This document shows, in pieces, positions 2,814-57,944 of a DNA stretch of 59,395 nt. This stretch comes from a virus. Its lineage: Duplodnaviria > Caudoviricetes. The translations under genes and the position numbers were made by a program. The stretch lies in the IMG/VR virus record IMGVR_UViG_3300046693_000004, positions 1 to 59,395 of that record; one strand, given 5' to 3'. The stretch's first letter is position 1. Every line of letters starts with the position of its first letter. The notes under the pieces are model-generated. The model made no database searches. It saw nothing but the letters and a program-made list of their open reading frames with translations, and had not been told where the DNA came from.

Positions 2814-3530
2814 TTTTAGTTTCCTTTTCGTTACAAATAACGATAACAAGAGATGTCCAAACAGGCTCATTATCAGTAAGAATTTTTACAGCCTCGTCAA
2901 TACTGTTCATTTCCATATCAATTTCATATTCGTGTTTGTCTGTGTTAACAGTTAAATGAATTTTCATTCCTTTAGCTCCATTGGATACATTTTCATTAGC
3001 ACATTCAGCGGCAATGCGCGTTCAATCTCTACCTTGAATACCACATCACTGTCAACATTCTTTCCATGTCCATCAGTCTTAAGCTGATGCTGAATTGATG
3101 GACACAAGCGACCATTGACTTTTGTGTAGAGGAACATCATTCGTCGTCTTCTTCCTCTTCATTTTCAGCTTCATAGCAGTCATCGCAGATAAAATCTTCA
3201 TAGCAGCAGTTATCATCGTCAATAAGTTCACAGCCGCACTTGCAGCATTTGTCTGTTTCTTTCATGTCATCACCATTTGTAATGTGATTACAATAAGCCA
3301 GATTGAGCCGATAACGCAAATGCCTTTGGCTGCTTCAGCTATCATAACCGTAATCCATGATCGCAATTTTAAACTTATCTCTGCGAGGTGAGCTAATTTT
3401 AAGTCTAATAAAAGACCAAATTAGCCCCCACGTAAGATTGTAAACAGGTTTTGGTGAGCTACTGAGATATAAACCACCATCCCAATAACCGTCAATGGGG
3501 CTATCAGTGTGGTAAGGCGGTGCTTTCATA

Positions 3531-30384: not shown

Positions 30385-33240
30385 TTAACAAGTTGTAACT
30401 AATGCATTTCCAAGCATTCCGCAAGTATTAGTCGATCCTATACTATCTGCTGCACCCCAAGTACCAATTTTAGAAGAAGTCGGTTGCCAAATAGTTACTT
30501 TATCAACTGTTGATGCTAATAACAATGCTCTACCTGCTGTACATGTACCATTGCATTTAATTAAATTATTAGAAACACTAATACCAGAACTATCGTTAAT
30601 GGTAATTGAGTTGGTTGAGGAATTATTATCAGAGCTAATTGCATTATTAGAGTATATCATATTATAGTTAAAAGTACCTCCTGTATTAGAAGATACTAAT
30701 AAGGCTCTAGGTGCATTATCATTAATGTTCCCATCAATGATTAATTCAGTCATAATAAAAGTAGATTTACAAGCAGCCGCAGCAGCAGTACCAGCTAATG
30801 TAGTGACATAAACGCCAGCACCACCGGGAGTTCCGCTAGTTTGACTAGCAATTGTAGTACCTGCTGCTACACCAGTTCCTGTTACAGTTTGACCTAAAGC
30901 AGCAACACCACCAGTAACTATTGTACCTGTAACACCTGTTACAGTCATATTAGTACCGGATTGTGTACAAGTAAAACTAGCAGAAACGCTATCTAACTGA
31001 ATTGATGCTGTTGGAGTACCAGTTCCAACTAACAAATTATGGTGAATATGTAATTCTGAGGTTTGGCCTCCAATATTTAAATAAACAGGTCGCGGGGCAA
31101 ATATCTGATTATTAGTTAAATTAAAAGCACCACCTGATTGCCAAAGTAATCCAATAGTATTTGAAGTAATAGGTGCAAAAACCTGAAAATAATTATCCCG
31201 AATAATATTACCTCCGCTATCTGGTGCAAGAGGATTAGAAACTTTAACACCATAATTATAATATGGCGACACAGTGCTATTTTTAATTGTACCGTTTAAA
31301 GAATTAAGCAAATTAATTCCAGAAGTACCATTTGTTACATTAACGCTATCTATTACTCCACCAATATTATTATATGTATTGTTACCATATTGTATTCCAA
31401 CTACTCCAGTTGTAGAAAGAGAAGGATACGAGCAGGTTAAATTTTTAACATTAAGTGTTTTATTAGCACTAGATGGATTAAAGTTAATACAATTTATGGT
31501 ACTTGTAGTTGGAAAAATAAATGTAGAATTTGCTCCATCACCTTCAATTGATACATTTGTTTGTACATTAATAGCACTAGATGAAATAATACATCTACCA
31601 GAAAGTAAAAGTGTATTGCCGGGGCCAGTTAAGCTTTGTACATAAATAGAAGCGTTATTTAATTCTAAAGTATCATCATTTGAACCGTCACATACTGCAC
31701 CAAAAATACTTGCCGGAACGCGAGCTTGCTTAACTAAAATCCAACGCCCGCTACCTACACTTGGCGCTATACAAGACCCACCATCATCCGTACAAGATGC
31801 TCCACTATCCCAATAATAAATTGTGGATGGTGAATCACCATTTGCATAATAGCCTGTCCTAGTAGCCCAACTATATAACCCAGAACCCAAAGCCTTTAAA
31901 GCTGCATTTGTAGCAACTGTAATAGTTGGTGCAGTTACCGTAGGAGCTAAAGAAATGATATTACCAGTACATAAAAGTCCTGTTCCGCAAGCTATGTCAC
32001 CAACCATTAAACCCAATGAAGTAACACCGCTAGCATCTGCGCTATTTTGGTCAGGTGTAATCTTAATAATATAATTTAAAGTTTGTGTAGATTGAACAAT
32101 ACCAAAAGGTGTAGATATTCCACCTTGAGCAGTTCCAGTAAACGTACCTCCACCTCCTAAATGTGCTACTACATCAATTCCTGTAACAGCAACATTATTT
32201 GTAACAACAACTGTTGCCCCCACACCACCTCCACCAAATGAAGTACCTGCTGCACTATTAATAAGATTACCTGCATTATTTAACGTATGTGTGTGACCCG
32301 GATCACCTATGCTAATGCCTCCATTACCCACAGTTAAATTACCACCAAGATTACCAGCAGGAGTATAAGGAGGCAAATTAGATGCAAGTAATGTTTTAGT
32401 TTGTCCGCCACCTTTAGCACCTGTGGCGCTTGCAGTGACACCTAATCCAGTAGAAGTTAAATTAGTACAATCTGTGCCGCCCATGTTACATCTACCAGCA
32501 ACTACATAACCTCTTAAATCAGGAACATTAAATGTAGTAGAACCATTACCGTTCCCGTAAAGAAAAAATACTCCAGTTGTAGCTGTAGTTAAACTAGCAT
32601 TAGTATTCATAGTAACAGTAGTAGAAGTTTTAGAAAGAACAGTAGAGCCTGCTGCAATACAAGTAGTTTCTAAAACAGCACCAGCAGGAATTTGAGATGT
32701 ATCAGACAATCCTGTTAAAATAGGACTACCCGAAGTGCAATTAACATTCTGATTTAAAGTTACAGCAGTATAAAAAGCAGCATAAGTAATGCGTGAAATT
32801 TCTTGCCCATATGCGAATACATATTGATTAGGAGCAACCAAACCAGCCCAAGACTTGACAGTACCAACTAAATCACCATCGCCCGTACCTGTAGTAGAAC
32901 CACCTGTACCAGCAGAAGCGGTTACAGCATCAAAAATAGTAACATTTGCAGATGTGCGGACTAATTGACGGTAAGTACCATCACCATAAATAATAGCTCT
33001 TCCACCAGCATCTAAAATAACCGGATTAGTGTTAGGCGTAGTTTTAGCAGCATCCTGCCATGTCGTCTTAAAAGTAGTGGTCGAGGGGATATAGAAAAAA
33101 ACTTTACCGCTTGAAAGCGGATTGCCATTATTGTCTAGAAATTGGGTCTTACCCTGTGGCAATATAGCGGCGTTCTGCGCAAGAGCAGGATTTAATAAAA
33201 GAAAAGAAAAAAAGAGGAAGTTGATGATAGTTTTCATCAT
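30385..33240 (-). CDS. tailspike / tail fibre with N-terminal Sec signal peptide
   Basis: MMKTIINFLFFSFLLLNPALA|Q; podovirus attachment domain (QFLD.NGNPL..GK...NTNPVILD..GR); tail-collar motif (GNGSTTFNVPDLRG); GHTH; beta-helix start (FGAVCDGSNDDT); 18 Cys. Confidence 0.88.
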   Translation of the reverse strand: MMKTIINFLFFSFLLLNPALAQNAAILPQGKTQFLDNNGNPLSSGKVFFYIPSTTTFKTTWQDAAKTTPNTNPVILDAGGRAIIYGDGTYRQLVRTSANVTIFDAVTASAGTGGSTTGTGDGDLVGTVKSWAGLVAPNQYVFAYGQEISRITYAAFYTAVTLNQNVNCTSGSPILTGLSDTSQIPAGAVLETTCIAAGSTVLSKTSTTVTMNTNASLTTATTGVFFLYGNGNGSTTFNVPDLRGYVVAGRCNMGGTDCTNLTSTGLGVTASATGAKGGGQTKTLLASNLPPYTPAGNLGGNLTVGNGGISIGDPGHTHTLNNAGNLINSAAGTSFGGGGVGATVVVTNNVAVTGIDVVAHLGGGGTFTGTAQGGISTPFGIVQSTQTLNYIIKITPDQNSADASGVTSLGLMVGDIACGTGLLCTGNIISLAPTVTAPTITVATNAALKALGSGLYSWATRTGYYANGDSPSTIYYWDSGASCTDDGGSCIAPSVGSGRWILVKQARVPASIFGAVCDGSNDDTLELNNASIYVQSLTGPGNTLLLSGRCIISSSAINVQTNVSIEGDGANSTFIFPTTSTINCINFNPSSANKTLNVKNLTCSYPSLSTTGVVGIQYGNNTYNNIGGVIDSVNVTNGTSGINLLNSLNGTIKNSTVSPYYNYGVKVSNPLAPDSGGNIIRDNYFQVFAPITSNTIGLLWQSGGAFNLTNNQIFAPRPVYLNIGGQTSELHIHHNLLVGTGTPTASIQLDSVSASFTCTQSGTNMTVTGVTGTIVTGGVAALGQTVTGTGVAAGTTIASQTSGTPGGAGVYVTTLAGTAAAAACKSTFIMTELIIDGNINDNAPRALLVSSNTGGTFNYNMIYSNNAISSDNNSSTNSITINDSSGISVSNNLIKCNGTCTAGRALLLASTVDKVTIWQPTSSKIGTWGAADSIGSTNTCGMLGNALVTTC

Positions 33241-41937: not shown

Positions 41938-43161
41938 TTAAACCTTATCCGCCACTACGCAAAGCCACTCAGGACGGATATACCTAAAGCCAAATAACAC
42001 GTCCACACGAGTAGCTAACTGATCGCTATTCGGCAGATAGTCAGTAAGCACGCGCATGGAAATACCATTGTATTCCGAACGCGCACACTCCACAACGGCA
42101 CCAGTGACCAACACAAGGTCAGCGGTTGCCATCGTAACAGCCTTCTGAGTGTAGGCAATAGACTTGCGGAACACTTCACCCGGCTTAGTCACCATAAGCA
42201 CCGCACCACCAGCAGGAGCGGGAACAGAAACAGTCTGAAACTGCTGATTAACACCAGCAATAGGAGCAATCAAATCAGGGTAAATAGGAATGCTAGTATC
42301 GTTAATCGCAACATCAGCAGTAACAACAAACTGCTGAAGCGTTCCTAAATCCTGCTTATTGACACGGTTAACCTGATTAACCGTAGCAACTGTAATAAAG
42401 TCACCCTTCTTAAGAGTGGTAGCAATTGCAGTAACAGTGAGTGCAGAAACGTTATTCTGCGCACCGTTAATGGTAGATGTACCTGCGTAAGTGCCAGAAG
42501 TGTGCTTAATAACAGTCTGATCTTCAAACCAACGCTCATAGCCTAAACCAGACTTCATGCTACCAGAACGAAATTGAGCACTAATTTCAGGAGTAGGATT
42601 AAACTGACCAGCCATAGTAGCGACGGCGCGAGCATTGGAAGTAGGATCAAGAACAATTCGGCGGCTGTTCATATCCGCTGAATTTTGAGTAAGAGTTGCA
42701 TTACCTAAAAGGTACTGTTCAATACCGGGGGAAATAATATTACCACCAGCATCAACGTTAGAAACGAAGTTACTGACGCCACCTTCAGAACCATTCATAA
42801 TGGTAACGGCAACCTCACCAGCAAGGTTGTTAATAATAGGCGCCATCACCAATTCTGAGTAGTTGTCAATATCCATCGTGCGTTCAGCAGAAGTGAACGG
42901 CACTGCGATATTAACCTGATCGGAAACGGTTAAAGTGGTGTATTTCTGTTGCGTAGGCTGCAACTGCATTGCAGGACCACGGGTAGGCACATAATCGCTA
43001 GGCAGACGAATACGCAACGTCTCACCAATTTTTGCACCATCAATGGCAAATTGAGGGTCATACTGAGTATCCATGTTCATAATGAACAGGTTAGAGTTTT
43101 TGAATAATCGTACTGCTTCAGCAGTAATCATGTCGATGGTTAATAAAGTATTACCGGGCAT
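41938..43161 (-). CDS. major capsid protein (P22 coat family)
   Basis: N.LLTIDMIT.EA...AKIG.TLRIRLP...R.DVLFG...IRPEW. Confidence 0.93.
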   Translation of the reverse strand: MPGNTLLTIDMITAEAVRLFKNSNLFIMNMDTQYDPQFAIDGAKIGETLRIRLPSDYVPTRGPAMQLQPTQQKYTTLTVSDQVNIAVPFTSAERTMDIDNYSELVMAPIINNLAGEVAVTIMNGSEGGVSNFVSNVDAGGNIISPGIEQYLLGNATLTQNSADMNSRRIVLDPTSNARAVATMAGQFNPTPEISAQFRSGSMKSGLGYERWFEDQTVIKHTSGTYAGTSTINGAQNNVSALTVTAIATTLKKGDFITVATVNQVNRVNKQDLGTLQQFVVTADVAINDTSIPIYPDLIAPIAGVNQQFQTVSVPAPAGGAVLMVTKPGEVFRKSIAYTQKAVTMATADLVLVTGAVVECARSEYNGISMRVLTDYLPNSDQLATRVDVLFGFRYIRPEWLCVVADKV

Positions 43162-45371: not shown

Positions 45372-45783
45372 TTGCATTTCCTTTCATTAAAGCAGCAGTG
45401 TCACCACTATTAACATGCTCAAATCTCTTAGTATTCACAATAATTGGAGGCTCTGGCTTACAGTCTAGAACCTTGGTCAAATCAATGTCAGGCAACTTAT
45501 TATCAAACAATGCTGTAGTGTCATCATCGTGAATACGCTCTTGCAACGCAGTCCAAATTTCATGCTTCATTGCAGGACTAGCGTTAGGTTGATTTAGAAT
45601 ATCGATTAAGTGCGATACTGCGCGCGGGATAAATTTAATGAAATTGTGAGCAGCGTAATACCTAGCTGATTTGTGTTTTGAAGTGAGACCTTGAGAACGT
45701 CCAACGTCGTAGAAGACGGCTGCAAATTCTAACGCGGTGCGTTCAATAAGTGTGGTGCGCGGGGAGGCGAGTTTTTTATTCAT
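45364..45783 (-). CDS. hypothetical protein
   Basis: 139 aa, coupled. Confidence 0.6.
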   Translation of the reverse strand: MNKKLASPRTTLIERTALEFAAVFYDVGRSQGLTSKHKSARYYAAHNFIKFIPRAVSHLIDILNQPNASPAMKHEIWTALQERIHDDDTTALFDNKLPDIDLTKVLDCKPEPPIIVNTKRFEHVNSGDTAALMKGNANG

Positions 45784-47831
45784 TCTGTATTCTCAAACGG
45801 GTTGTGGTCAACTTTAACGAGGCGCGGCTTGCGCTTGAATGGGTCATCTGACACCGGGGTAAAAGTTGGTACACCACTTGAGTACAACGGAAATCCCTTG
45901 TTAGCAATAGTTTCGCGCATTTGTGGTGTGATTTTGATTATTGGGATTTTATCACCTTTTAAGTTTTCAATCATTCTACCAACAGTTTCTTCTACCATTA
46001 AATCATGAATACCATCGCGTTCGCTTTCTAATGCTTTAACTTCGTTTGATTTAATAGCTTCGCTATTTCTACCGTTATTAGTCAGTTTGTTAATTTCTTT
46101 AGTATATTCGTCCCAAGCTTTAGCATATTTAGTTTGTGCCTCTTCATCCGGCCTAATTTCATTCTTTTTAATCTTGCTCTTATCTGCAGGTAAATTTTCA
46201 TACTCCACCTTCCCGCCCATCTTTTTAATTAACGCATTAGCTTTAGCTGGCAACATGGTGTCATAAAAGGCTTTCATGCCTTCACCGCCTACTTTGAGCT
46301 CAACTCCACTATATTCTATTGCTCCTGTTAAACCTTCCTTATTATCTTTTATTATTTTTTCAGCTAACTCTTTACCTACAGTATCAGCAAGCTTATCCTC
46401 TGTAACTCTATCTGCTAAAGCATTAGAGGTTTTATGACCCTTTTGAGTACCAGATATATTGTAACTTCCATCTTGCCGCTTAGTAGCTGTTATGTTGTCA
46501 TAATGCTTACTCAAATCATACCTAGCTGCCTGTGCCTCCCCCGGAGTCCAAGACACAGCATCATAACCCTTAGTAGCTGCCTCTGATAACACACGCTTTA
46601 ATGCAAGTTCATCCCAAGTCTTTTTAAATGGTGCATTGGGTACGCCACTTTTAGCATTCCTAACGGCCTCTTGAGCTAATCTGTATTCTTCCTGTAATGG
46701 AATTAATATGCGATCAATCTCAGGCATATCAGGAAATTCTTTGCGATTTCTTAATTCTGCTCTAGCATCTTCTAATTTAGTGTAAGCTGTATCTAATCTA
46801 CTTGTTAAAGCCTTTTCAGCTTCAGGATTAAAATATCCTTGCTTCCTCCCTGCCTGATGCCAATCACTTTGAATTTCTTCAACATGCAATGTCTTACCAA
46901 CTCCGGGTACTTCTCTATCATTCATACGAATATGGGCTAATACATTAGGTTCATCCCAATGGGAGGATTTGTAGTCAGGCATTCCTTTATATCTAGATAA
47001 TCCTTCGATATCTCTATTTTCAGGTTGAATTTTATTCATTATGTCAACCCATTCTGCTTTTTGTTCTGGTGTAGCTTCCCTACCCAAAGCCTCAAGTTCA
47101 CGCCTTCTAGCATCTAATTTTTCGGCCTTATTAGGTACATTTAAAGTTAACTCTCTGTAATTTTCTCCACCCGGCAATTGCCATTGAGAATAGCTATTTG
47201 TCTTACCTTGATAAGTTGGATTTAAATTTTCATTAAACTTAATCCCATTATCCGCAACATGCTGTGCTAATTGTTCCTTAGTTAACGGCTTATCGCCAAG
47301 TCCAGTTAAACTAAATTCCAATTCTTCAGGCTTAACACCCGGTTGATTTTTTAAGTAGCTAGTCCATTGCTCAGGAGTAGCTTTCTGTACCTTTGAACCT
47401 GCAATAGTATTTTCTAAGGTAGAATAAAACTTACCACCAATAGCACCTAGAGCACCTTTTTCAGCTAAAGGAATAGAAGACATTCCAGCTAAGCCAGCCA
47501 TGTCCTGTACACGTTCGATAACAGGCTGTGAGGTATGTCCGCTATCATCAGTGATAGGCACAGCACCAGAATAAACATCACCAGCAATGGTGCTACCGCT
47601 TCTAACCATTCGTTCTGGCCAAGTCTGATAGCGTTCCTCACCACCAGTGCCAAATAACTTATTACCAATCTTACTACCTGCACTTACCTGAAAATCATCA
47701 ATTAAGCGATTATCTGGTAATTCCGGTATTGTAGGCAAAGCTAATTCTTTACGCTTGATAGTGTTAGTTTCAGGATCAATAAAATAATCCTTTGGTGAAA
47801 CTCCAAACTGAGCATAAAGATCATCAGCCAT
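45780..47831 (-). CDS. EEIQSD-motif protein (domain usually embedded in large phage polyvalent/internal proteins)
   Basis: FYSTLE, GVKPEEL, GGENYRE, SHWDEPNVLAHIR, EEIQSDWHQ, PFKKTW, GMKAFYD. Confidence 0.65.
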   Translation of the reverse strand: MADDLYAQFGVSPKDYFIDPETNTIKRKELALPTIPELPDNRLIDDFQVSAGSKIGNKLFGTGGEERYQTWPERMVRSGSTIAGDVYSGAVPITDDSGHTSQPVIERVQDMAGLAGMSSIPLAEKGALGAIGGKFYSTLENTIAGSKVQKATPEQWTSYLKNQPGVKPEELEFSLTGLGDKPLTKEQLAQHVADNGIKFNENLNPTYQGKTNSYSQWQLPGGENYRELTLNVPNKAEKLDARRRELEALGREATPEQKAEWVDIMNKIQPENRDIEGLSRYKGMPDYKSSHWDEPNVLAHIRMNDREVPGVGKTLHVEEIQSDWHQAGRKQGYFNPEAEKALTSRLDTAYTKLEDARAELRNRKEFPDMPEIDRILIPLQEEYRLAQEAVRNAKSGVPNAPFKKTWDELALKRVLSEAATKGYDAVSWTPGEAQAARYDLSKHYDNITATKRQDGSYNISGTQKGHKTSNALADRVTEDKLADTVGKELAEKIIKDNKEGLTGAIEYSGVELKVGGEGMKAFYDTMLPAKANALIKKMGGKVEYENLPADKSKIKKNEIRPDEEAQTKYAKAWDEYTKEINKLTNNGRNSEAIKSNEVKALESERDGIHDLMVEETVGRMIENLKGDKIPIIKITPQMRETIANKGFPLYSSGVPTFTPVSDDPFKRKPRLVKVDHNPFENTE

Positions 47832-50179
47832 TATTCAACTCTATAATGTTGGTTATTCTGTTCCACATACCAAGCTCCATCAGGGGCCTTGCGCGCACCG
47901 GGTACAGGAGGCTCATCCGCCCCTTCCCCCTCACCACCAGCCGCTACAGGCTCAATAGGCGTACCTCCATCACCTATCCCTGCCTCGTCAATATCAGGCA
48001 TTCCTAGAGCTTCAGCAACAGCCTGTTTAATAAGAGGTTGGACTTGTTCAAGACTAAATGCAGGTCCAGCATTACCAACAGCAGCAATACGCCTACTGAT
48101 AGCGTCCCAATCATCTCTAGTCTCACCAACTTTAGCTTTTCTAAAGTTAAGTTCTAGCTCATGCTCCTTACGCTCTAAATCCTTAGCCTTTAATTCAAGT
48201 TCTGCATTTTTATCTTTCAATTGCTGTGCTTGTTCTGTAACAAGTCCTGTCAATTGCTCAATCTTATCTGCTGCCTGATGCATAGCTTGCTCAACTTGCG
48301 GGTCAGGACCATCATTGGCAATATTGGGCGGTAAGAATTTCTTCCAACGCTTTGAAAGAGCTTGCGACTTCGGGAAGTCTGCCATTTCAAAATAAATATC
48401 GCCAGCACGTTCCATAAACTCTTTAGAACTTGCTGCAAGCTGCGACATAGCACTAAACGATTCCATACGCTTAGTAGCATAAGAAGGTCCAGTATCAGCT
48501 TGAATATCATATGTACCGATATTAGGATTAAAAATTAACTCTTTAATCTTCTCATCATTATCAGTTTCATTTGTGGGCATTTCTTTTACAGCATCAGGCG
48601 CATTAGGATCAATAGTCATATTAATGATAGTACCGTCACTAGCTGTAATACGCTGCACCCGCTTTGTATCGTAAATTTTTGGAATAAGATCAATAATCTG
48701 CTTTCCAGTGTTACGAATAGCCATAGCCTGATTATCTAAGAAATGATAAGTAGCGCGATCACCTTGACGTTGCCTTGCATTAATTGCAACACCAGACTTA
48801 GCATTTTCATTTTCACCAGTCTGCGATTGATACTGCCCAGTAGTCATCATCATTTCTTGAATAGAAATCTGCATACGTTGAACATATGCAGGTGATGCTT
48901 GTGGAGCAGCAGGACGAGTAGGGGGAGGAATAGGATCGCCATTCTCATCAATATGATTATATGGTAAATAAGAGTGATTAACAGTATTAGCTGTTTTATA
49001 ATACTCTTCAAATCCTTCAATAGCAGCAGCAGGAGCTAACCACGGCACTTTAGTTTGAAGTGCGCCGTATTCAACATCAGCAGAGGCATTCCAGTTATAC
49101 ATACGCTGTGGGTCAATTAATTGACGTGTGTGCCCCTTACGATCTAACACACCATTAATAACCGTCTCTGTACCAACAAGGCGTACAATTGGAACATATT
49201 TCCCAAGCCACGGACCACGATCAATAATGCGATCACCGGCAATCTTAAACCATTGCACATCGTCAATTAAAAGTTTGCGCTCCTGATATTGATAAGCTTC
49301 TCTGTTTTCTTTATTTGTATGGATTTCTTTATATTCTAATTTCTCTTGCTCGTCTAGATCATCGATCTTCTTTAAAACCTGTCCACCATTAGCATTAATC
49401 CAAGTAACAAGCTTACTTTTCTTTTGAGTTTTGCGATAGTATTCACAAACTCTAACAGTATTTTGCGTCATCCATCCATCAGGACTATTACCACCTAAAA
49501 CACTATTACTCACAATTGACGCATATTCAGGATACTTAGATTTAAACAAATCCTTAGGTTCATCATCAAAAATAAAACCAAACCATGCATCTGAGCCGTC
49601 AACTTCATTAATATTAGGGTCTAAATAGACAGAACGAGGGTCTTTAATACGACGAATATAAATCTCTTGGTCAAATGATTCATCATCAGGATATTCAACT
49701 TGAATACGCCAATAACCTATACCAGCCTCAACTTGGAAGGTTAGTGCACTATCATAGATACTTTCTGCATTGGAAATATATTCAATATGATAGACAATTT
49801 CCTGAAACAATTGAGCAGCGTCATATGAGGCTTCATCACCTACAGGACGAATACGAACACCCGGCTTATTTTGCTTAGCATCATTAATAACCATCAGATT
49901 GTGCTGATTGGTTTTATTGATAGTGAGGCAAGGGCGATTTACACCAGTACGATCATTATATAAAACATCATCCCATTGAAAATGATTGTGCGTATCGGCA
50001 TTGGCAAATTTATAATCATACTCAAAATTAACGCGAGCTTGTGCTTCCCAAGCTACGCAAATACGAAACCTATTCTTAGCTTCAATAACTATATCGTCGT
50101 CTTCTTTAGTTGGTGGTGGTACTGGTTTATTAACCGTCACATCCCAATTTAAAGACCAATTGTTGTCATCTGTGGGCAT
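47831..50179 (-). CDS. portal protein (P22 gp1-like)
   Basis: RPCLTINK, G.GYWR, DPQRMYN, SGVAI.ARQ.QG, GPSYATKR. Confidence 0.93.
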   Translation of the reverse strand: MPTDDNNWSLNWDVTVNKPVPPPTKEDDDIVIEAKNRFRICVAWEAQARVNFEYDYKFANADTHNHFQWDDVLYNDRTGVNRPCLTINKTNQHNLMVINDAKQNKPGVRIRPVGDEASYDAAQLFQEIVYHIEYISNAESIYDSALTFQVEAGIGYWRIQVEYPDDESFDQEIYIRRIKDPRSVYLDPNINEVDGSDAWFGFIFDDEPKDLFKSKYPEYASIVSNSVLGGNSPDGWMTQNTVRVCEYYRKTQKKSKLVTWINANGGQVLKKIDDLDEQEKLEYKEIHTNKENREAYQYQERKLLIDDVQWFKIAGDRIIDRGPWLGKYVPIVRLVGTETVINGVLDRKGHTRQLIDPQRMYNWNASADVEYGALQTKVPWLAPAAAIEGFEEYYKTANTVNHSYLPYNHIDENGDPIPPPTRPAAPQASPAYVQRMQISIQEMMMTTGQYQSQTGENENAKSGVAINARQRQGDRATYHFLDNQAMAIRNTGKQIIDLIPKIYDTKRVQRITASDGTIINMTIDPNAPDAVKEMPTNETDNDEKIKELIFNPNIGTYDIQADTGPSYATKRMESFSAMSQLAASSKEFMERAGDIYFEMADFPKSQALSKRWKKFLPPNIANDGPDPQVEQAMHQAADKIEQLTGLVTEQAQQLKDKNAELELKAKDLERKEHELELNFRKAKVGETRDDWDAISRRIAAVGNAGPAFSLEQVQPLIKQAVAEALGMPDIDEAGIGDGGTPIEPVAAGGEGEGADEPPVPGARKAPDGAWYVEQNNQHYRVE

Positions 50180-50407
50180 TTATAAATCGCCTTGAATATA
50201 CATGTTTGGGTTATTAAAGAGCTTTACAGCCTCGTTAACCCACTCAGGCTTAATCTTTAAAGAACCATACAAAACATCTACACTTCCACTATATGCAGGT
50301 ACATAATCACTTATAACTCGCATTGAAATAGTATTAGCAATAGGCAAAGAAATAGCCGGTAGAGCTACGCTGCTTAATAAACCTTTTAAGAAGCCACGCC
50401 TATTCAT
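50180..50407 (-). CDS. Tat-signal protein carrying a coat-protein C-terminus homologue
   Basis: GGAGG RBS; MNRRGFLKGLL twin-arginine motif; ISMRVISDYVP...VDVLYG..IKPEW. Confidence 0.75.
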   Translation of the reverse strand: MNRRGFLKGLLSSVALPAISLPIANTISMRVISDYVPAYSGSVDVLYGSLKIKPEWVNEAVKLFNNPNMYIQGDL

Positions 50408-50408
50408 A

Positions 50409-51104
50409 CTACCCTCCCATCCAATTCGTTCCAGGCCTAAATGCTGGCCTAATAACTCCAGCACCAACAGTTTTAATAGGCTTTTTCATTTGTGTTTCTG
50501 ACTTTAAGCTAGTCGCAAATGTTTGAAATGCATCCGCACCGTGGCTAAATTCATTGTGTAATGGTTCTCTACTAAATGTACCTGTATCCTCATCAACCTT
50601 ATATTGATAGTTACAGAGACATTGCCAACCATCGGCCGTTGCCTCTTCATCGAAATTACAAAGATCAAAGATAACACGAGCAGCCCGAATACCATGCACC
50701 TTTTTAGCAACACGAGGAACAATTTTCACCTTCCCCGGATAGCTATCGCGCAAGATTTTTGCAGTAGAGCGTCCTGCAAGCGTTTCATTATCACCATCAT
50801 GTGGCAAATAATGATAACCATAGTTATAACCCAATGACTGTAAGTGCTGAATATAAAAAGGTATTTTCTTTAATCGATCCTGATAAAAGGCAATTAGATT
50901 ATACTCAATACCAACCTGTTGTACAAACCAAATTGAAGTATAGTCATCATGACCCAAGTCCCAAAAAGTATGAACAACACGCGAAGAGTCATAACGAACT
51001 TCACCCCTACGCTTATCTTTTAAGACTTTCTTAATCTCTTCAGCGTAAATAGCACCATCTAAAACCTGTTTAGTGTTGCCTTCCCACACATGTAAATAAT
51101 CAAT
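50409..51104 (-). CDS. terminase large subunit, C-terminal nuclease part (separate frame)
   Basis: YLHVWEG, WDLG..D, LPHD, HGADAF. Confidence 0.85.
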   Translation of the reverse strand: MDYLHVWEGNTKQVLDGAIYAEEIKKVLKDKRRGEVRYDSSRVVHTFWDLGHDDYTSIWFVQQVGIEYNLIAFYQDRLKKIPFYIQHLQSLGYNYGYHYLPHDGDNETLAGRSTAKILRDSYPGKVKIVPRVAKKVHGIRAARVIFDLCNFDEEATADGWQCLCNYQYKVDEDTGTFSREPLHNEFSHGADAFQTFATSLKSETQMKKPIKTVGAGVIRPAFRPGTNWMGG

Positions 51105-51862
51105 ATCATTTCACGCCTTAGATCGGGCGGGAAAAATTTATTATCATCATGATTGACTTTAACAACAAATGCATATCGCTTGTTGCGAATATGCTGATAA
51201 CGTTGTTTCTCTAATGCAGTAAGATAATCAATATCAATGCTATTATCTAACTTCTCTTTAACAGAATAATAAAATTTTTGGTCTTCTAGGTCAACTTCAC
51301 CGTTAATAAAATCAGGTGCATATTGTTGACGTTTAATTACATAACGTTTATAAATTTCATCATCTTCTAATTCAGGATTAAATGTAAACCACAACTCAGG
51401 ACCAAGCCCAAATGGTCCGCCCATTCCAGCAGGATCATTTTCATGGCGACCACGAATAGTAGGGCCAAGTTTATCTAATGAAGTCTTAGAAATATTTCTA
51501 GCTTCATCAGTCCAGTTAATATCAATTTTAGCTAGTGATTTAATTGATTCAATGTTATGCCGTAAACCAGCAAATAAAAATTCAGAACCAGTGAGCTTAG
51601 AAACTATTCTAGTAGCTTGAATTTGAAAAGTATCTGCTAGACTAGCAGAGTTAATACAATTAACTAATGTTTGATAGGATGATTGCGCGAGTGAATTTTG
51701 AAATTCACGACTACATAAAATACGCAGCTTCTTATGATTAGCGAAAACAGGTAAGGCTGTAGAAGCACCTTCAGTCTTACCTGCTCCACGACCACCATAG
51801 ATAATTTTTAAGCGTGCTGGTTCAAATAAGAATGCAAGCTTTCTGAGAAATTCGATTGCCAT
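51059..51862 (-). CDS. terminase large subunit, N-terminal ATPase part (PBSX-type)
   Basis: YGGRGAGKT, REFQNS, SIKS, WTDEA, PTIR, FNP, VN..DN..FP. Confidence 0.88.
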   Translation of the reverse strand: MAIEFLRKLAFLFEPARLKIIYGGRGAGKTEGASTALPVFANHKKLRILCSREFQNSLAQSSYQTLVNCINSASLADTFQIQATRIVSKLTGSEFLFAGLRHNIESIKSLAKIDINWTDEARNISKTSLDKLGPTIRGRHENDPAGMGGPFGLGPELWFTFNPELEDDEIYKRYVIKRQQYAPDFINGEVDLEDQKFYYSVKEKLDNSIDIDYLTALEKQRYQHIRNKRYAFVVKVNHDDNKFFPPDLRREMILIIYMCGKATLNRF

Positions 51863-51928: not shown

Positions 51929-54355
51929 TCATGGAGGAATAACCACACCTTGATTAGTCAGCATTTGTATTGTCACTCCAGGACTGCCAGCAGTATTGGC
52001 ACTGTACACCGGACCGCTGTTGGCGGCCTTGCCTACCCACAGAGCAAAACCGGGGGCGGTCAGATCATCCAAGCTCTTCGCGCCAGTTACCGCTGACTGC
52101 GTCACGGTGCGTGTCCCGGCGATCATTTCGTTTATGACAGCCCGAGGAAAGGTCGACACGCTCCCATCCGACTGTTTAATCATGCTCCAGTTGTCCAAGA
52201 CAGACAGAGACCATGAAAGCGCCCCCGCTCCAGCGTAGACCGGGTTTGGGGTCGCTGTTAGAGACGAGAACTTGCCCCATAGCAAAAATGTAGACGCGGG
52301 GGTAGTGCCAGCAGCACCGCCCAAATAAGTAGCCGTGTGGCATGACCACAATGGCAAATTGGCAGTGCACCCCGACAACGAAACAGCGTTCTCGTTCCCG
52401 GAGCTATTGACGAAGGTAGCTTGGGGTGCGGGGTGCGGCCGGATGCTAACCGGAGTTATCCCGGCCGGAAATCCGCTCGTTGCGCTCGTTTGGATGTACG
52501 TATTATTAAAGTCCTGTGTCACATCCGTGACTTGAAACAGCCCGGCAGTCTGGCCTGCTATGGCTATAAACGAATTCGCCCCCGGAACGGCCCAACGCGC
52601 TTGGCTTTCGAGTATCCCATAACTCTGCCAGTTCGGGATTGTGATGATCCCGGTCGCACCAAATGTCCAATTCGAAGTTACAGGATGATCGTACCCCCCT
52701 GACGCTATGTCACTCGCAATCACGCAACTGGTGCAAGATACCGAATCCGACCGACCATAAGCATACGCGCCGGGAGACAACCCTGTGCCGGTACTACCCG
52801 TGTCCTGTATCGTGACGTTGGTGCCAACAAATACCTTTGGTGTTCCAAAAATATGCCCGGTAACGGTCGTGCCGGATATGTTGACCCGGTTGATCGACGA
52901 GCTTTGAAAATCAAGAGTTCGGAAGGTGCCGCCCGTAATGTTGATCGTGCCTATCATCTTGTCGATTTCGACAACGCAATTTGAGGCGGTCACGTTCGTG
53001 TAGTAGAAAGTCTCATTCTGCGATGGGATAGAGCATAGGCCGCCTATGAGAGTCGCGTCGGTGAATTTGATCGTCCTGCCATTAGTCGCGAGCGAATTAT
53101 TTGTGGTGTCAGTGATGGTGACACCCTGATAGTCCTGCACCGTCTCCCATGAGTCTTGCAGAAGGTACAAGGTTGCGGGACCACCGTCGTCAACCTCGAA
53201 CTCATTCCCGGTACTAAACTGCGGCCAAGTCGATTTGTATGTGATCGCCAACGGAGCATCGAAACAAACCTGATGCGTGCCTGAATCCGAACTGACGACC
53301 GTCCTGTATTCAAAGAAATGCTGGTTGCTCGGAAATCCGTAAGGGGTGCCCCATATATACTGGATGTTATATCCAGTCATCTGCACCTTGGCGCCGACCG
53401 GGAACAGCGAGGTTCGATCCCCGCCAACAGTGCCGCCACTCGTGTATGTACCCGCAAATAGCGAATGAAAAAGATCAAGGTGCGTGCCGTCGACCTTGCG
53501 GGACCACCAGAGCCCGTTCGTGCTATTGTCCAAGCCACCTGTAGCGACAACGCCCTGAACGAATACCGCGTCTCCATCCGTGTACCCAGTCGTGGAGTTG
53601 ACTGTGAGCCGTACAACGCCGGTTCCGGTTAATGCTTGGCTGGAAAGTGTTTGCGTTGCATTGACAGTGTATGTGCCTGCACCCCCACTGCCGCTCCCGA
53701 ACGCTGTGATGGTCGTGTACGTAATGGGCGTGTTGACGCCGATGGTGGAACCTGACCCTCGAACGATTTGGCCGATCGCAATCGTGCCCGTAACCGATGA
53801 AGCGGTTAGCGTCGTTCCGGAAATGCCTCCGGTGAACGAGGCGTCCCCAACACTGTTGGAAACATTGGAGACCGTCGCAAGCGGCTGCGTGATCAGCGTG
53901 ACGCAGCTATCGCCCGCCGTTGCCGTTGCCGTTCGGACGCTATGTTTGTTGTCCTGATATTGCCCGCGACCGCCGAGCCGTAGCGGAGTTGAGCTGGTGT
54001 TCGTGAGCGCCCCGCCGGAATATCCAGAATAAATGAAATTCTTGATGCCATCGAAGATAAAGAAATTGCCGGATGTTAGTGTCGTTAGTTTGCAATTAAG
54101 CCCATCCGCCAACAGCTTGACTTGGCTCGATCCCTGATTAGCCAGCGCCCACGTCCTGAACGACACAAACGAAGCTGTGTCGTCGGCCACGCCATTGCAC
54201 GTAGCCAATGGAGACGTACAAGGCCCCGATGCTCCCACCGTAACCCCCGTGACAGGGTTGCATGTGATCTGTGGCGTAACAACAGCCGAACCGTGTGTCC
54301 ATCCTGCAACGACCAATAGTATGAAAATAAGAAAGGGTAGTTTTTTCACACTCAC
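51929..54355 (-). CDS. secreted tailspike-like beta protein (808 aa)
   Basis: Signal-like N-terminus KKLPFLIFILLVVAG; CNGVADDT beta-helix start; module shared with the tailspike; FCCH-like insert; 12 Cys; high GC. Confidence 0.7.
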   Translation of the reverse strand: MSVKKLPFLIFILLVVAGWTHGSAVVTPQITCNPVTGVTVGASGPCTSPLATCNGVADDTASFVSFRTWALANQGSSQVKLLADGLNCKLTTLTSGNFFIFDGIKNFIYSGYSGGALTNTSSTPLRLGGRGQYQDNKHSVRTATATAGDSCVTLITQPLATVSNVSNSVGDASFTGGISGTTLTASSVTGTIAIGQIVRGSGSTIGVNTPITYTTITAFGSGSGGAGTYTVNATQTLSSQALTGTGVVRLTVNSTTGYTDGDAVFVQGVVATGGLDNSTNGLWWSRKVDGTHLDLFHSLFAGTYTSGGTVGGDRTSLFPVGAKVQMTGYNIQYIWGTPYGFPSNQHFFEYRTVVSSDSGTHQVCFDAPLAITYKSTWPQFSTGNEFEVDDGGPATLYLLQDSWETVQDYQGVTITDTTNNSLATNGRTIKFTDATLIGGLCSIPSQNETFYYTNVTASNCVVEIDKMIGTINITGGTFRTLDFQSSSINRVNISGTTVTGHIFGTPKVFVGTNVTIQDTGSTGTGLSPGAYAYGRSDSVSCTSCVIASDIASGGYDHPVTSNWTFGATGIITIPNWQSYGILESQARWAVPGANSFIAIAGQTAGLFQVTDVTQDFNNTYIQTSATSGFPAGITPVSIRPHPAPQATFVNSSGNENAVSLSGCTANLPLWSCHTATYLGGAAGTTPASTFLLWGKFSSLTATPNPVYAGAGALSWSLSVLDNWSMIKQSDGSVSTFPRAVINEMIAGTRTVTQSAVTGAKSLDDLTAPGFALWVGKAANSGPVYSANTAGSPGVTIQMLTNQGVVIPP

Positions 54356-55275
54356 CCGCCAATAATCTTGCCGCCACCGCCACCAATCGCTGGTGGTGTT
54401 ATAGTCGCGGAATTACCTCCGAAATTAAACGAATTGGTAACGGTCGGTTGCGTGCCGGTGAAGATAATGTTGTGCAAACCACTCCACTGGATCGTTGAAC
54501 CAGACGCAGATACTATCGTGGCAACTCCGCTATTCACACTGCCTGGGGCGATTAGAATCTGATTTGTCGACGTTCCGACCCAATTAAAGGCGTTTGTGAC
54601 TGTTTGCGTCCCGCCTTGAGGAAAGAAAACTGAATTAGGGGCACCGATATTGAGCGTAGCGAATGTGTTGTTGCTAAAAACATTGATCGCTCCACCGCTA
54701 CTGTTCGCGCTAAACGTAACGGTATTGTAGGTTTTTCCACCCCCGTCAAATTGAAGAAAGCCAGTTCCGACACCTGTATAAGCGATTGTCGATCCATTAG
54801 CATTCAGTGTTAGCGTACCGCCGCCTGCGCTGGCATCCCATAATGTGCCGTTGTTCGAATTGTCGGAAAGAGTCCACGTTCCATTTCCAAGATTGACCGT
54901 TTTAGTACCAGACCCGCTACATCCCATTGAAGGACTGGCAGTCAACGTAACGTTTTTATTATTTGCGCTCCAGTCCAGGGTGCCACCAAACGTCCCACAT
55001 ACAATCCTCTGAAGGTTAATAAGATCAATCGTAACAGTGACGGTCCCTCCTCCCGAGGCGCTGTCAAATGTTGCGATATCTCCAGTATTCATCGGAATAC
55101 TACTAGTAGCTGCACAGGTTCCGGGAACTCCACCAGTAGAACTAGCCCATGACGAAATATTAATAGCTGTAAAACTACCTGTTCCACCTACCCAAAAACA
55201 GTTAGCAGCCGCGTTTGCTTTAGTAATAAATAAAGATACAAGAAAAAGAAGTGCAACACGCATAATAATTTTCAT
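54352..55275 (-). CDS. secreted beta-helix / fibre-like protein
   Basis: MKIIMRVALLFLVSLFITKANA|A; FWVGGTG...W.SSTGG motif; 4 Cys. Confidence 0.7.
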   Translation of the reverse strand: MKIIMRVALLFLVSLFITKANAAANCFWVGGTGSFTAINISSWASSTGGVPGTCAATSSIPMNTGDIATFDSASGGGTVTVTIDLINLQRIVCGTFGGTLDWSANNKNVTLTASPSMGCSGSGTKTVNLGNGTWTLSDNSNNGTLWDASAGGGTLTLNANGSTIAYTGVGTGFLQFDGGGKTYNTVTFSANSSGGAINVFSNNTFATLNIGAPNSVFFPQGGTQTVTNAFNWVGTSTNQILIAPGSVNSGVATIVSASGSTIQWSGLHNIIFTGTQPTVTNSFNFGGNSATITPPAIGGGGGKIIGG

Positions 55276-56183
55276 TGCTGCACCCATGCAATATGTCCTG
55301 CTAGCGGTGTTGCTGCCGAAGTGATTAAGCATAAATCTACATTAGTTCCTGCTGTAGCAGCTACAGCGAAACCACCATTACCCATAGAAACACCACCATT
55401 TGCTGCAAAATTAGGACCATTAGCAGCAGTAGTACCGCCAACTACACCAGCAGTGCCACTACCACAAGTACCGCCTGTACCTTCCACTATACCCACATTA
55501 TCAGCAGCAGCCGAAGTTAGAAGCATATAACAAACATATGTCTTTTTTGACGCCGCTGGAGCTACAATGCGCGTTGTAGTGACTGTAGTAATACTAATTG
55601 GTGTATAAGTTTTAGCTACAGTCTGACAAGGATCGCCAATTTGACCAACTAAATTGCCACCAACATTTAAACCATTATAGCTTGCATTAGCAGGAACAGC
55701 AGCGGCCGTAGCACCAACCCCAACTTGTGAGGATGTAAGAGCTACTAAATTTGTAGTACCGGGCGTAGTTTGATCTATTCCAACTTTACCAATAATAGCA
55801 GAACCGGCAGTTAATGAACCAATAGCATTAGTTCCTGCTGGAATAGCACCAGCAGTGTTAGAAATAATAGTATCTAATTTAGTTAATTCAGAAGTCTGGT
55901 TAGCTGCTGTAGCGACACCTGTAACTGTAATAGTGCCGCTTACTGGAACAACTGTACCACTTGCAATACCTTGAATAGTAATCACATTAGTATTAGCAGT
56001 ACCAGCAGTACCTAAAATACTAGCTCCTGTAGAGCCTACTAAATTAACACCCTGAGATTGAACACCAGCACCAATATCGATTGTACGCATCGTAACTCCC
56101 GTACCGGGAGTTAAAATGACTGCATTATCTGCTGCTTGTGCTAATGTGGGTAAAAGGAATAATAAAGCTAATAGCTTTTTCAT
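55272..56183 (-). CDS. secreted Gly/Thr-rich protein with C-terminal beta-sandwich-like domain
   Basis: MKKLLALLFLLPTLAQA|A; 4 Cys; C-domain paralogous to 56336-56776. Confidence 0.75.
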   Translation of the reverse strand: MKKLLALLFLLPTLAQAADNAVILTPGTGVTMRTIDIGAGVQSQGVNLVGSTGASILGTAGTANTNVITIQGIASGTVVPVSGTITVTGVATAANQTSELTKLDTIISNTAGAIPAGTNAIGSLTAGSAIIGKVGIDQTTPGTTNLVALTSSQVGVGATAAAVPANASYNGLNVGGNLVGQIGDPCQTVAKTYTPISITTVTTTRIVAPAASKKTYVCYMLLTSAAADNVGIVEGTGGTCGSGTAGVVGGTTAANGPNFAANGGVSMGNGGFAVAATAGTNVDLCLITSAATPLAGHIAWVQQ

Positions 56184-56351
56184 TTAAATTACCGTGATAT
56201 ATTGGCTGTTACAAGCATCTGTAAAATCTAATGAATTAGAACAACTAGGACCAACACCAGTAGCACCTTTACCAGCTTTTAAAAGTGGTAGAAATCCTGC
56301 AAAAGCAGCAGTTGAAAGAATTACAAAAGCAATGATTAAAATTGTGCGTAT
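56184..56351 (-). CDS. small secreted peptide, no ATG start
   Basis: (I)RTILIIAFVILSTAAFA|G...CSNSLDFTDACNSQY; fills the gap between coupled genes; start inferred at ATA. Confidence 0.55.
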   Translation of the reverse strand: MRTILIIAFVILSTAAFAGFLPLLKAGKGATGVGPSCSNSLDFTDACNSQYITVI

Positions 56352-56776
56352 GACACAGCACCGGACATTTGAACAGCAGCCGAAGTAGTAGCGCAAAGAG
56401 CATTACCTTGAGGAACTAAAATAACAATCCCCATACCATCACCCTTAGAAATACCTGCCTGAGCAGTTAGGGGATATGGTCCAGTTAAGCTAGTAGTACC
56501 TGTACCGCAATTAGTACCAGTGCCGTAAACTAATGTAAAATTACCTGTACCTCCTGAAATAACATCCCAAGAGGTAACAAAAATAGTTTTACCATTAACA
56601 AGAGCAACTAATTGAGTAGTTGTAGCTGTAGAAATATTAATCGGAACTGAAGTTGCTGCTTGCACAGCAGGAACACAATTAGTGCCATTAGTAGTATAAC
56701 AACTAGCTGTTCTACTTTGTGCTAAGGCAATTGTGGGCAAGAGTAATGCCCACAATAAGATTAGGAGCTTTTTCAT
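56336..56776 (-). CDS. secreted beta-sandwich-like protein
   Basis: MKKLLILLWALLLPTIALA|Q; 4 Cys. Confidence 0.75.
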   Translation of the reverse strand: MKKLLILLWALLLPTIALAQSRTASCYTTNGTNCVPAVQAATSVPINISTATTTQLVALVNGKTIFVTSWDVISGGTGNFTLVYGTGTNCGTGTTSLTGPYPLTAQAGISKGDGMGIVILVPQGNALCATTSAAVQMSGAVSYAQF

Positions 56777-57315
56777 TGAAGTGGCGCCAAGCAAACGGTA
56801 ACAGTAACGCCAACAGATGATTGAATTGCATCAGCAAAATCAACAGCTAATCGATTACCAGCCGCAAGATTAACAACACCAGCCGTAGTAACTAATGCAC
56901 CTGTTTGAGTAGTGTTGGCTGTAGCATTTAAGTTAAAAGCAGTAGATAACAAATCAGTACCAGCACCGGGAGCGGCAGTACCAGTATCTTTAGTTACCTG
57001 AAGTGTAGAGGTTCCGCCAGCAGCTACAGAATGAATTTCACTGATACTTATTACTCGCATTGCACGAGTAGCAATAAAAAATACTTGATCTACCGCAGTA
57101 GTAGGTGCAGCGGCAGTAGCTCCTGTAAAATAATAAGTGGGGCAAATAAGGCCACCATTAATAGCGTCAACCGTTTTATTAAGCTGATTGCCATTAGGGC
57201 TAATAAAACCATTTGGATATTTAAGAAGCAACTGAGAACTAGCATTAGCCTGTTGAGCATGGCTTAAGCTAGGAAAACAAGCCATCATTAAAGCCGCAAG
57301 CAATAATTTTTTCAT
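56773..57315 (-). CDS. secreted Ala/Thr-rich (decoration-like) protein
   Basis: MKKLLLAALMMACFPSLSHA|Q; 2 Cys in the mature part. Confidence 0.75.
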   Translation of the reverse strand: MKKLLLAALMMACFPSLSHAQQANASSQLLLKYPNGFISPNGNQLNKTVDAINGGLICPTYYFTGATAAAPTTAVDQVFFIATRAMRVISISEIHSVAAGGTSTLQVTKDTGTAAPGAGTDLLSTAFNLNATANTTQTGALVTTAGVVNLAAGNRLAVDFADAIQSSVGVTVTVCLAPLQ

Positions 57316-57333
57316 AATAATTTGTTCCTATAT

Positions 57334-57360
57334 AAAAATAAAAGGGGCTAAAAGCCCCTT
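57334..57360 (-). terminator. Rho-independent terminator after the first secreted-protein gene
   Basis: AAGGGGCT/AGCCCCTT stem followed by a T-rich run on the minus strand. Confidence 0.7.
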
Positions 57361-57362
57361 AA

Positions 57363-57944
57363 TTACTGTGTACGGTGCCAAATGCCAACAGTGGCGCTTG
57401 TCTTACTATAAATATATCCAAAACAAGAGGCGGCACCAGTAACAACAGGAACAAGCATTGCAGTTGGTGCTGTAGTGCTAAAAGTATTGCCAGTGCCAGC
57501 GCCGCTAGTAAGAGTAGTGACAATCTGAGTACCGCAGATGCCAATACGTTGACCATTAAGCATGGTGCTTGAAGCAGCAGGAAGATTAATGGTTAATGCT
57601 GCAATAGTACCAGCAGGAGTAACAATAAGTTGGCGCGTTTGAGCATCAACTGTAATAGTATCACCAGTAACAGGAGTAGTAACAATAAGCTTACCGCCAC
57701 CTAATGACTGAATATCAATTTTAGCACTCTGCACACCACTTGCGCCAATATTTGTATCAACTGGAAGAGTTTCGTTACCAGTTAATGCAGGACCGGCAGG
57801 AACAGTCAAAGTACAAACGTTATTGTTGGTACTGGCGCAATAAGACGGTCCATCAATCTGCGGAAAATTAGGCGCAAAAGTCTGAGCCATTGCGAGAGAA
57901 GGAAATGCAGCAACAGCAAGAACTAAAAGTAATTTCTTAAGCAT
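57363..57944 (-). CDS. secreted decoration-like protein
   Basis: MLKKLLLVLAVAAFPSLAMA|Q; PAGTIAALTINLP...W.R pattern; 4 Cys. Confidence 0.75.
   Translation of the reverse strand: MLKKLLLVLAVAAFPSLAMAQTFAPNFPQIDGPSYCASTNNNVCTLTVPAGPALTGNETLPVDTNIGASGVQSAKIDIQSLGGGKLIVTTPVTGDTITVDAQTRQLIVTPAGTIAALTINLPAASSTMLNGQRIGICGTQIVTTLTSGAGTGNTFSTTAPTAMLVPVVTGAASCFGYIYSKTSATVGIWHRTQ

Follow-up and report, generated by a model that had tools for sequence, protein, structure and literature searches.

A 75-aa ORF in the head module of a P22-like phage was found to join a twin-arginine-type N-terminal module to two pieces of the phage's own coat protein, and the same construction recurs in many small proteins of otherwise unrelated phages. 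No family in Pfam, PHROG or NCBIfam covers this protein, and the abstracts of the papers returned by full-text searches describe no phage protein consisting of a signal plus a capsid fragment. We regard the gene architecture as new, and the family was previously undescribed. Our leading reading, to which we give somewhat less than an even chance, is that these proteins form a new family of envelope-targeted mimics of capsid proteins, for which superinfection exclusion or sensing would be a guessed role.

Small phage ORFs are usually dismissed as orphans, and starting from this one, at least 3384 unannotated proteins were found. They follow a building rule, i.e. a conserved export-type address plus pieces of the own head protein, which was re-created for at least five sequence-unrelated head-protein families and points to a function depending on capsid recognition. 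Bacterial immunity is often set off by head proteins, and the way in which most phages control superinfection still lacks an explanation. With about 75 residues and two separable modules, the family is a clonable handle for finding what recognises conserved capsid segments and in which compartment of the cell. In addition, it shows an HK97-fold element that was circularly permuted and minimised in nature.

Position of the ORF and its surroundings

The window, which is the whole stretch of DNA analysed, is a complete virus record of 59,395 bp. A P22-like head module on the minus strand comprises terL, portal, a scaffold-like gene and coat (Table 1). The 75-aa ORF (called mini ORF below) had been placed between terL and portal by the initial annotation, and it fits this gap to the base. 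Its frame is intact from the ATG (50407-50405) to the TAA (50182-50180); the stop TAG of terL (50411-50409) is 1 nt upstream of the ATG, and the TAA directly abuts the ATG of portal (50179-50177), by which the gap is filled exactly. The GGAGG ribosome-binding site proposed for it is present in GGGAGGG, 4 nt upstream of the ATG, and this is the strongest Shine-Dalgarno match of the 30 gene starts inspected. The same bases encode the end of terL (WMGG and the stop codon), which makes the site in part a consequence of what terL encodes.

Table 1. Positions of the mini ORF, its parts and the related genes in the window
Feature	Position	Strand	Description
Mini ORF (P0001)	50180-50407	minus	75 aa; signal-like module, coat C-terminal piece and coat N-arm piece
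Signal-like module, residues 1-24 (MNRRGFLKGLLSSVALPAISLPIA)	50336-50407	minus	twin-arginine-type; possible signal-peptidase-type site A-I-S/L-P-I
Mini residues 25-57	50237-50335	minus	copy of coat 365-400 (two C-terminal strands); loop 3 residues shorter
Mini residues 59-71 (EAVKLFNNPNMYI)	50195-50233	minus	copy of coat 15-27 (N-arm)
GGGAGGG	50412-50418	minus	Shine-Dalgarno-like; overlaps last codons of terL
Coat gene	41938-43161	minus	P22_CoatProtein, E 4.6e-27
Copied coat segment, residues 365-400	41962-42069	minus	
Copied coat segment, residues 15-27	43081-43119	minus	
Portal gene	47831-50179	minus	P22_portal, E 1.9e-140; start abuts mini ORF stop
terL	50409-51862	minus	two overlapping frames, 51862-51059 and 51089-50409

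The mini gene was not found in any of 19 related portal loci examined. In 18 of these loci, which have sequence upstream of portal, the terL-portal gap was empty in 8 and contained unrelated ORFs of 25-72 aa in 9, L005 being ambiguous. The profile of the family matched at the coats only in four related records, one of which is complete. Contigs of relatives from four public soil-metagenome runs extend over both flanks and join position 50180 to position 50418 without the mini ORF, with 37 letters replacing it in X1 and X2 and about 593 in X4 (a 7131-nt contig). Since relatives join terL to portal without the ORF, the mini gene is a cassette in a hot spot and not a core assembly gene, and because close relatives lack it, an essential assembly role is unlikely. 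It is dispensable, lies in a hot spot for gene exchange, and is a real accessory (moron-like) gene in a variable slot.

The two frames of terL overlap at 51059-51115, and the relatives in the public runs have 22 extra bases at about 51096-51100. The terL genes of relatives are single ORFs of 455-487 aa. From these 22 bases and single ORFs, a frame-breaking deletion or an assembly error is deduced for terL of the window, and with an out-of-frame terL the window genome may be defective or misassembled.

Directly upstream of terL, a run of genes with Sec-type signal peptides (808, 326, 152, 180 and 193 aa) occupies 51929-57944. The gene for 808 aa lies in an island of 55% G+C in a genome of 40% G+C. 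A signal-bearing protein of 412 aa is likewise encoded upstream of terL in another phage (G001). A 951-aa protein of the tail region (30385-33240) has a clear signal-peptide-like start, which is unusual for a virion protein. After portal, a 683-aa gene (45780-47831) partially matches a PHROG labelled as endolysin (E 3.7e-13), and it stands where an internal or ejection-type protein would be.

Coat pieces in the mini ORF

The likeness to the coat C-terminus, which had been read from the sequence in the initial annotation, is confirmed by pairwise significance. Mini residues 25-57 and coat residues 365-400 are identical at 18/36 positions (BLASTP, E 4e-9), with a local score of 84 compared with 24.2 +/- 3.7 for shuffled sequences, and none of 2000 shuffles reached 84. 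A second piece had been missed. Residues 59-71 match coat 15-27 at 8/13 positions (BLASTP, E 1e-3), with a score of 45 compared with 21.9 +/- 3.4 for shuffled sequences and 0/2000 shuffles reaching it. Residues 1-24 have no similarity to the coat, their score being reached by 770 of 2000 shuffles. The pieces follow each other as signal, coat C-terminal piece and coat N-terminal piece, and the junction of a tandem coat duplication would produce such a circularly permuted order.

The coat profile matched the mini at coat positions 367-402 only (domain i-Evalue 9.3e-8), and the 75-aa protein had no match to the whole domain of P22-type coats with HK97 fold (PF11651) even at E<=10. Compared with P22/Sf6-type coats (PF11651; solved relatives 8skg, 5l35 and 7sp4), the payload, i.e. 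the part behind the module, is homologous to the last two strands and the N-arm, and keeps R370, Y375, P377, D387, L389, G391 and P397-W399. Unlike these coats, the mini has only 46/407 residues in permuted order, its loop length is not conserved, and a full-domain match is absent.

In the DNA, the mini agrees with the coat at 31/46 first, 34/46 second and 19/46 third codon positions, so the copy is old and the likeness was kept at the protein level. The own coat ranks 22nd among 121 family coats, the mini being about equally distant from all of them, and both copied segments are nearly invariant in these 121 coats. The spacing from SMR to DxLxG is 16 in 118/118 coats, 13 in the window mini and 10-24 over 41 minis. 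Strand residues are conserved in the minis, and the loop, invariant in the coats, is free to change.

The N-terminal strand of the coat, LRIRLPSDYVP (residues 45-59; 42985-43029), resembles the coat's own C-terminal strand, ISMRVLTDYLP (residues 365-379; 42027-42069), and the mini matches both, with E 0.007 for the N-terminal one. The idea that the twin-arginine module comes from the coat strand preceding residue 365 was rejected, since against the coat profile the modules by themselves did not outscore shuffles. AlphaFold2 models were poor, with a mean pLDDT of 61 for the mini and also 61 for one longer member, and for this reason no fold is claimed for the mini. Co-folding of the coat with mini residues 22-75 scored 0.00, which speaks neither for nor against binding.

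The N-terminal module and its family of small phage proteins

The twin-arginine motif named in the initial annotation is present, in that N-R-R-G-F-L-K (mini residues 2-8) fits the Tat consensus polar-R-R-x-hydrophobic-hydrophobic, whereas the curated profiles score the mini below their cut-offs, with 16.0 bits against 22.7 for TAT_signal of Pfam (PF10518) and 12.8 against 16.7 for TIGR01409. None of 29 relatives matched PF10518 at E<=0.01, and 2/10 relatives gave sub-threshold matches to TIGR01409. In a protein language-model atlas, taken as a lead only, the mini is near viral hypothetical clusters and Tat-signal proteins. Like Tat signal peptides, it combines NRRGFLK with a short, moderately hydrophobic stretch containing Pro, Ser and Ala, and with small residues two apart before a possible cleavage site.

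The consensus of the module over the family is RRxFITGLxSLVAAPAIVRAxS/LMPVK, with the twin arginine, a short hydrophobic stretch and small residues at -3 and -1 (the slash marks the putative cleavage site). RR is found in 126/127 members and KR in one. Position -3 is A or V in 113/120 members (A in the window). Of the same 120 members, 103 have S, G or A at position -1, and 16 have N there, which does not fit signal peptidase I. Unlike ordinary signal peptides, the module is far more conserved, and the conservation extends beyond the putative cleavage site (LMPVK). Over 26 module codons in 28 loci, pS was 0.61 and pN 0.20, and identity by codon position was 0.74, 0.87 and 0.43; these values suggest protein-level constraint on the module, the pS/pN comparison being partly circular because the loci were chosen by an 8-residue protein pattern. 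Unlike bacterial Tat signals, the module occurs almost only in phage DNA. Of 40 pattern hits in 185,579 genomes of bacteria and archaea, 1 was confirmed as a relative, in an Acetobacteraceae MAG, so the module is essentially a phage feature.

A word-index search found only the mini itself, and when 50,697 phage records were searched with the mini by tblastn, a single chance match (E 8) came up. An exhaustive HMMER scan of 1.84e9 representatives returned 16 hits at E<=1e-3, 15 of which are small relatives of 63-137 aa, with the RR module followed by ISMRxhT[DE]YxP...DhLYG...PEW and with 29-58% identity to the window mini. The closest, P0123, is 58% identical and aligned over residues 1-71 (E 5e-19), and two others, P0124 and P0127, run on into about 55 residues of the coat N-terminus. 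The 16th hit (P0136) is a repeat protein and was dropped from the family.

In viral contigs, the module pattern matched 57 times, and 32 loci were confirmed, each with a small ORF that starts with RRxFITGLxSLVAAPAIVRAxSLMPVK and goes on with varied sequence. A module profile search found at least 3384 small proteins among 8000 candidates scored, and none of them had a name or a Pfam family. As defined here, members of the family are about 60-170 aa long and have a conserved RR module at the N-terminus and a payload homologous to the resident major head protein, and the window mini belongs to the family. A DNA pattern for short-loop minis matched 0 stretches in viral contigs; its match in a metagenome contig (L124) was a chance hit in a kinase-like gene. 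Another pattern gave 70 loci, and all 30 inspected were full coats and not minis.

In the search for such fusions in related phages, which had been proposed as a check, the fusion recurred as a family and was absent from all close relatives of the window examined. A one-off decayed duplication, the explanation that was initially set against a functional gene, is contradicted, because the architecture recurs in many small phage proteins and the payload behind the module follows the resident head-protein type.

Within 3.5 kb of the ORFs with the module (RR ORFs), the neighbours in 32 loci included terL of two types (9), portal (5), terS-like genes (3) and head proteins. The gene order in G001 is as in the window, but its RR ORFs are 5-8 kb upstream of terL. 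The majority of the family members belong to P22-like and T7-like podoviruses of Alphaproteobacteria.

For nine complete or near-complete records, the payload of each RR ORF was searched against the genome that carries it, and in 7/9 it matched the own major head protein (Table 2). In G005 and G011 this search gave no match of the payload to the own head protein, and neither did it for the fourth RR ORF of G001. The head proteins copied belong to five families that are unrelated in sequence; the head protein of G008 is 72% identical to that of G009. The G001 minis reached 116 and 165 against their own coat, compared with 80-101 and 127-145 against five other coats, and this closeness to the own coat points to repeated capture or gene conversion.

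Table 2. Matches of RR ORF payloads in the search against their own genomes
Genome and ORF	Part matched	Support
G000 (window)	coat	E 2.6e-6
G001 ORF	coat C-terminus, 55% over 38 aa	E 1e-10
G001 ORF	coat N-terminus, 52% over 64 aa	E 1e-18
G001 third ORF		suggestive, 5/2000 shuffles
G002	C-terminus of GP7-type head protein (PF20911)	E 1e-11
G007	residues 80-106 of phrog_371 head protein	E 3.6e-5
G008	head protein N-terminus, 72% over 25 aa	E 1.2e-8
G009	head protein N-terminus (phrog_9953)	E 4e-4
G010	head protein N-terminus (phrog_334)	E 0.01

With the coat profile, P22-type coat pieces were identified in 69/130 family proteins (domain i-Evalue<=0.01). Up to 62 proteins cover coat positions 361-409, 18 cover positions 91-130, which we take to be the long P-domain helix, 4-6 cover positions 1-70, and 2 cover positions 231-270. 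In members with two pieces, the C-terminal coat piece always comes first.

G001 (L128, L138) is a complete 62-kb phage with four RR ORFs (2850-3458, 47828-48190, 49498-49878 and 49875-50261). Two adjacent ones overlap by 4 nt, one with a coat N-terminal piece and the other with coat C-terminal and long-helix pieces. The tail of G001 ORF-B was considered as a copy of the portal N-terminus (7/2000 shuffles), and this was rejected since positions 96-127 of the coat profile match this stretch (P0195, i-Evalue 3.5e-4).

The short portal motif YGRSPxMxAL is contained in RR ORFs of L045 and L042, where 1 and 2 of 1000 shuffles did as well (Pfam E 2e-4). This is suggestive only, and it hints that a payload may combine pieces from several virion proteins. 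Both ORFs (L045:5998-6276 and L042:306-608) share the motif in the form YGRSPxMDAL with their own T7-type portal proteins, and in L045 it comes directly after the head-protein piece.

Possible functions of the mini protein

The joining of an export-signal-like N-terminus to a capsid-protein mimic, as initially annotated, is borne out by the sequence comparison, whereas the roles put forward with it (a defence decoy, a docking surface for secreted proteins or a prohead tether) are conjectural. For the leading reading, the envelope-targeted mimic, the module would be an export signal, most likely of the Tat type, because it has a twin arginine, a positive N-terminus and, some 20 residues on, a small-x-small site. 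As an export signal it would send the capsid-like peptide to the inner membrane or the periplasm, presumably late in infection and co-translated with terL and portal. The mimic might then meet incoming phage material of the same capsid type in the envelope, and it could serve to exclude superinfecting phage or, like T4 RI, to sense superinfection; we offer these two steps as guesses. We know of no precedent for a periplasmic use of capsid pieces.

The T4 antiholin RI and the T4 proteins Imm and Sp are small proteins that a signal or anchor at the N-terminus sends to the envelope, and they act on superinfecting phage or sense it. The mini is like them in being a small phage protein whose N-terminal signal would lead it to the envelope, whereas none of the three is built from capsid pieces and no similarity in sequence would be expected. 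An "address plus self-capsid peptide" scheme was also considered and appears unlikely. By this scheme, which would apply to phages of many lineages, the module would put a mimic of the conserved capsid surface in the envelope or at the Tat translocon, either for capture or sensing of what incoming phages of the same capsid type release, leading to kin-specific superinfection exclusion or lysis timing, or for baiting host capsid-recognising proteins out of the cytoplasm by Tat hitch-hiking. In either case a virus would be using re-addressed epitopes of its own capsid as weapon or sensor, and this would be a principle not seen before.

A mimic acting on the cytoplasmic face is the alternative that survives best, and we regard it as somewhat unlikely. 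The module would dock at the Tat receptor or the inner face of the membrane, and the payload in the cytoplasm would bind a recogniser of conserved capsid segments. This could be a host capsid-sensing immune protein (the mini being a decoy or bait, by which it is possibly dragged out), unassembled coat, or portal (as a tether or brake on assembly). Several results agree with this, since the payload tracks the type of the own head protein in 7/9 genomes and keeps residues invariant in coats, the genes belong to the head/packaging module, with the window copy coupled to portal translation, and the patchy, fast-changing distribution fits an arms race. The mini did not fold alone in models, as expected of a peptide that folds on its partner. 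Head proteins are, moreover, described in a review as frequent triggers of bacterial defence systems (PMC13728456), which also suits such a mimic. However, a hydrophobic twin-arginine module would be superfluous in a soluble decoy, yet no other part of the family is as conserved as this module, and the positive N-terminus with small residues at -3 and -1 points to translocation and cleavage. A cytoplasmic decoy fits poorly with the export-like signal. An assembly poison could not spare the own coat, since the N-arm and the C-terminus are nearly invariant in 121 coats.

Fv1 and enJS56A1 are capsid-derived restriction factors of mammals, which are host genes of retroviral origin and act in the cytoplasm. 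By analogy only, the mini is like them in that a fragment or copy of a capsid gene was kept for a new job in capsid recognition, and unlike them it is carried by the phage itself with an export-type signal. The Gol peptide of T4 gp23 activates the Lit protease, an example of how some 30 residues from a major head protein can be biologically active by themselves. Unlike the mini, Gol is part of the full head protein and not a separate gene, and has no signal.

It is quite improbable that the mini is a non-functional chimera, in which a mobile signal cassette and scraps of a coat duplication were left in a recombination hot spot and may be translated. Such an origin would agree with the slot being empty or filled by unrelated small ORFs in relatives, with the absence of the gene from all close relatives examined, with the poor structure models and with the broken terL beside it; the head-protein and portal pieces of L045, which are apparently joined at shared similar residues (AIR/AMR), fit it too. 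Against it, the intact frame fits its gap to the base, third codon positions are near saturation relative to the coat with the amino acids kept, and the architecture persists at 29-58% identity and, counted by the module, in at least 3384 proteins. Random scraps would not explain payloads that match the own head protein in 7/9 genomes, because the head gene makes up about 2% of each genome, and neither do they agree with the constant piece order of two-piece members.

Podovirus ejection proteins often carry hydrophobic segments, and a minor virion component, whose capsid-like piece would dock in the shell or portal vertex in place of a coat segment and whose hydrophobic N-terminus would act at the next infection (e.g. 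membrane insertion during DNA ejection), might agree with this, with the position between terL and portal and the probable expression with structural genes, and with payload elements that would make subunit contacts in the HK97 fold (judged from the general fold and the coat-profile positions), but it is very improbable, since the gene is dispensable in close relatives and the loop invariant in coats varies in the minis, which argues against a lattice position.

T4 internal proteins have a conserved capsid-targeting sequence and hypervariable bodies. The minis are like them in having a short conserved N-terminal address and in being small, fast-changing accessory proteins of the head-gene region. 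Unlike in the minis, the address of the T4 internal proteins is not hydrophobic or signal-like, and their bodies are not capsid copies.
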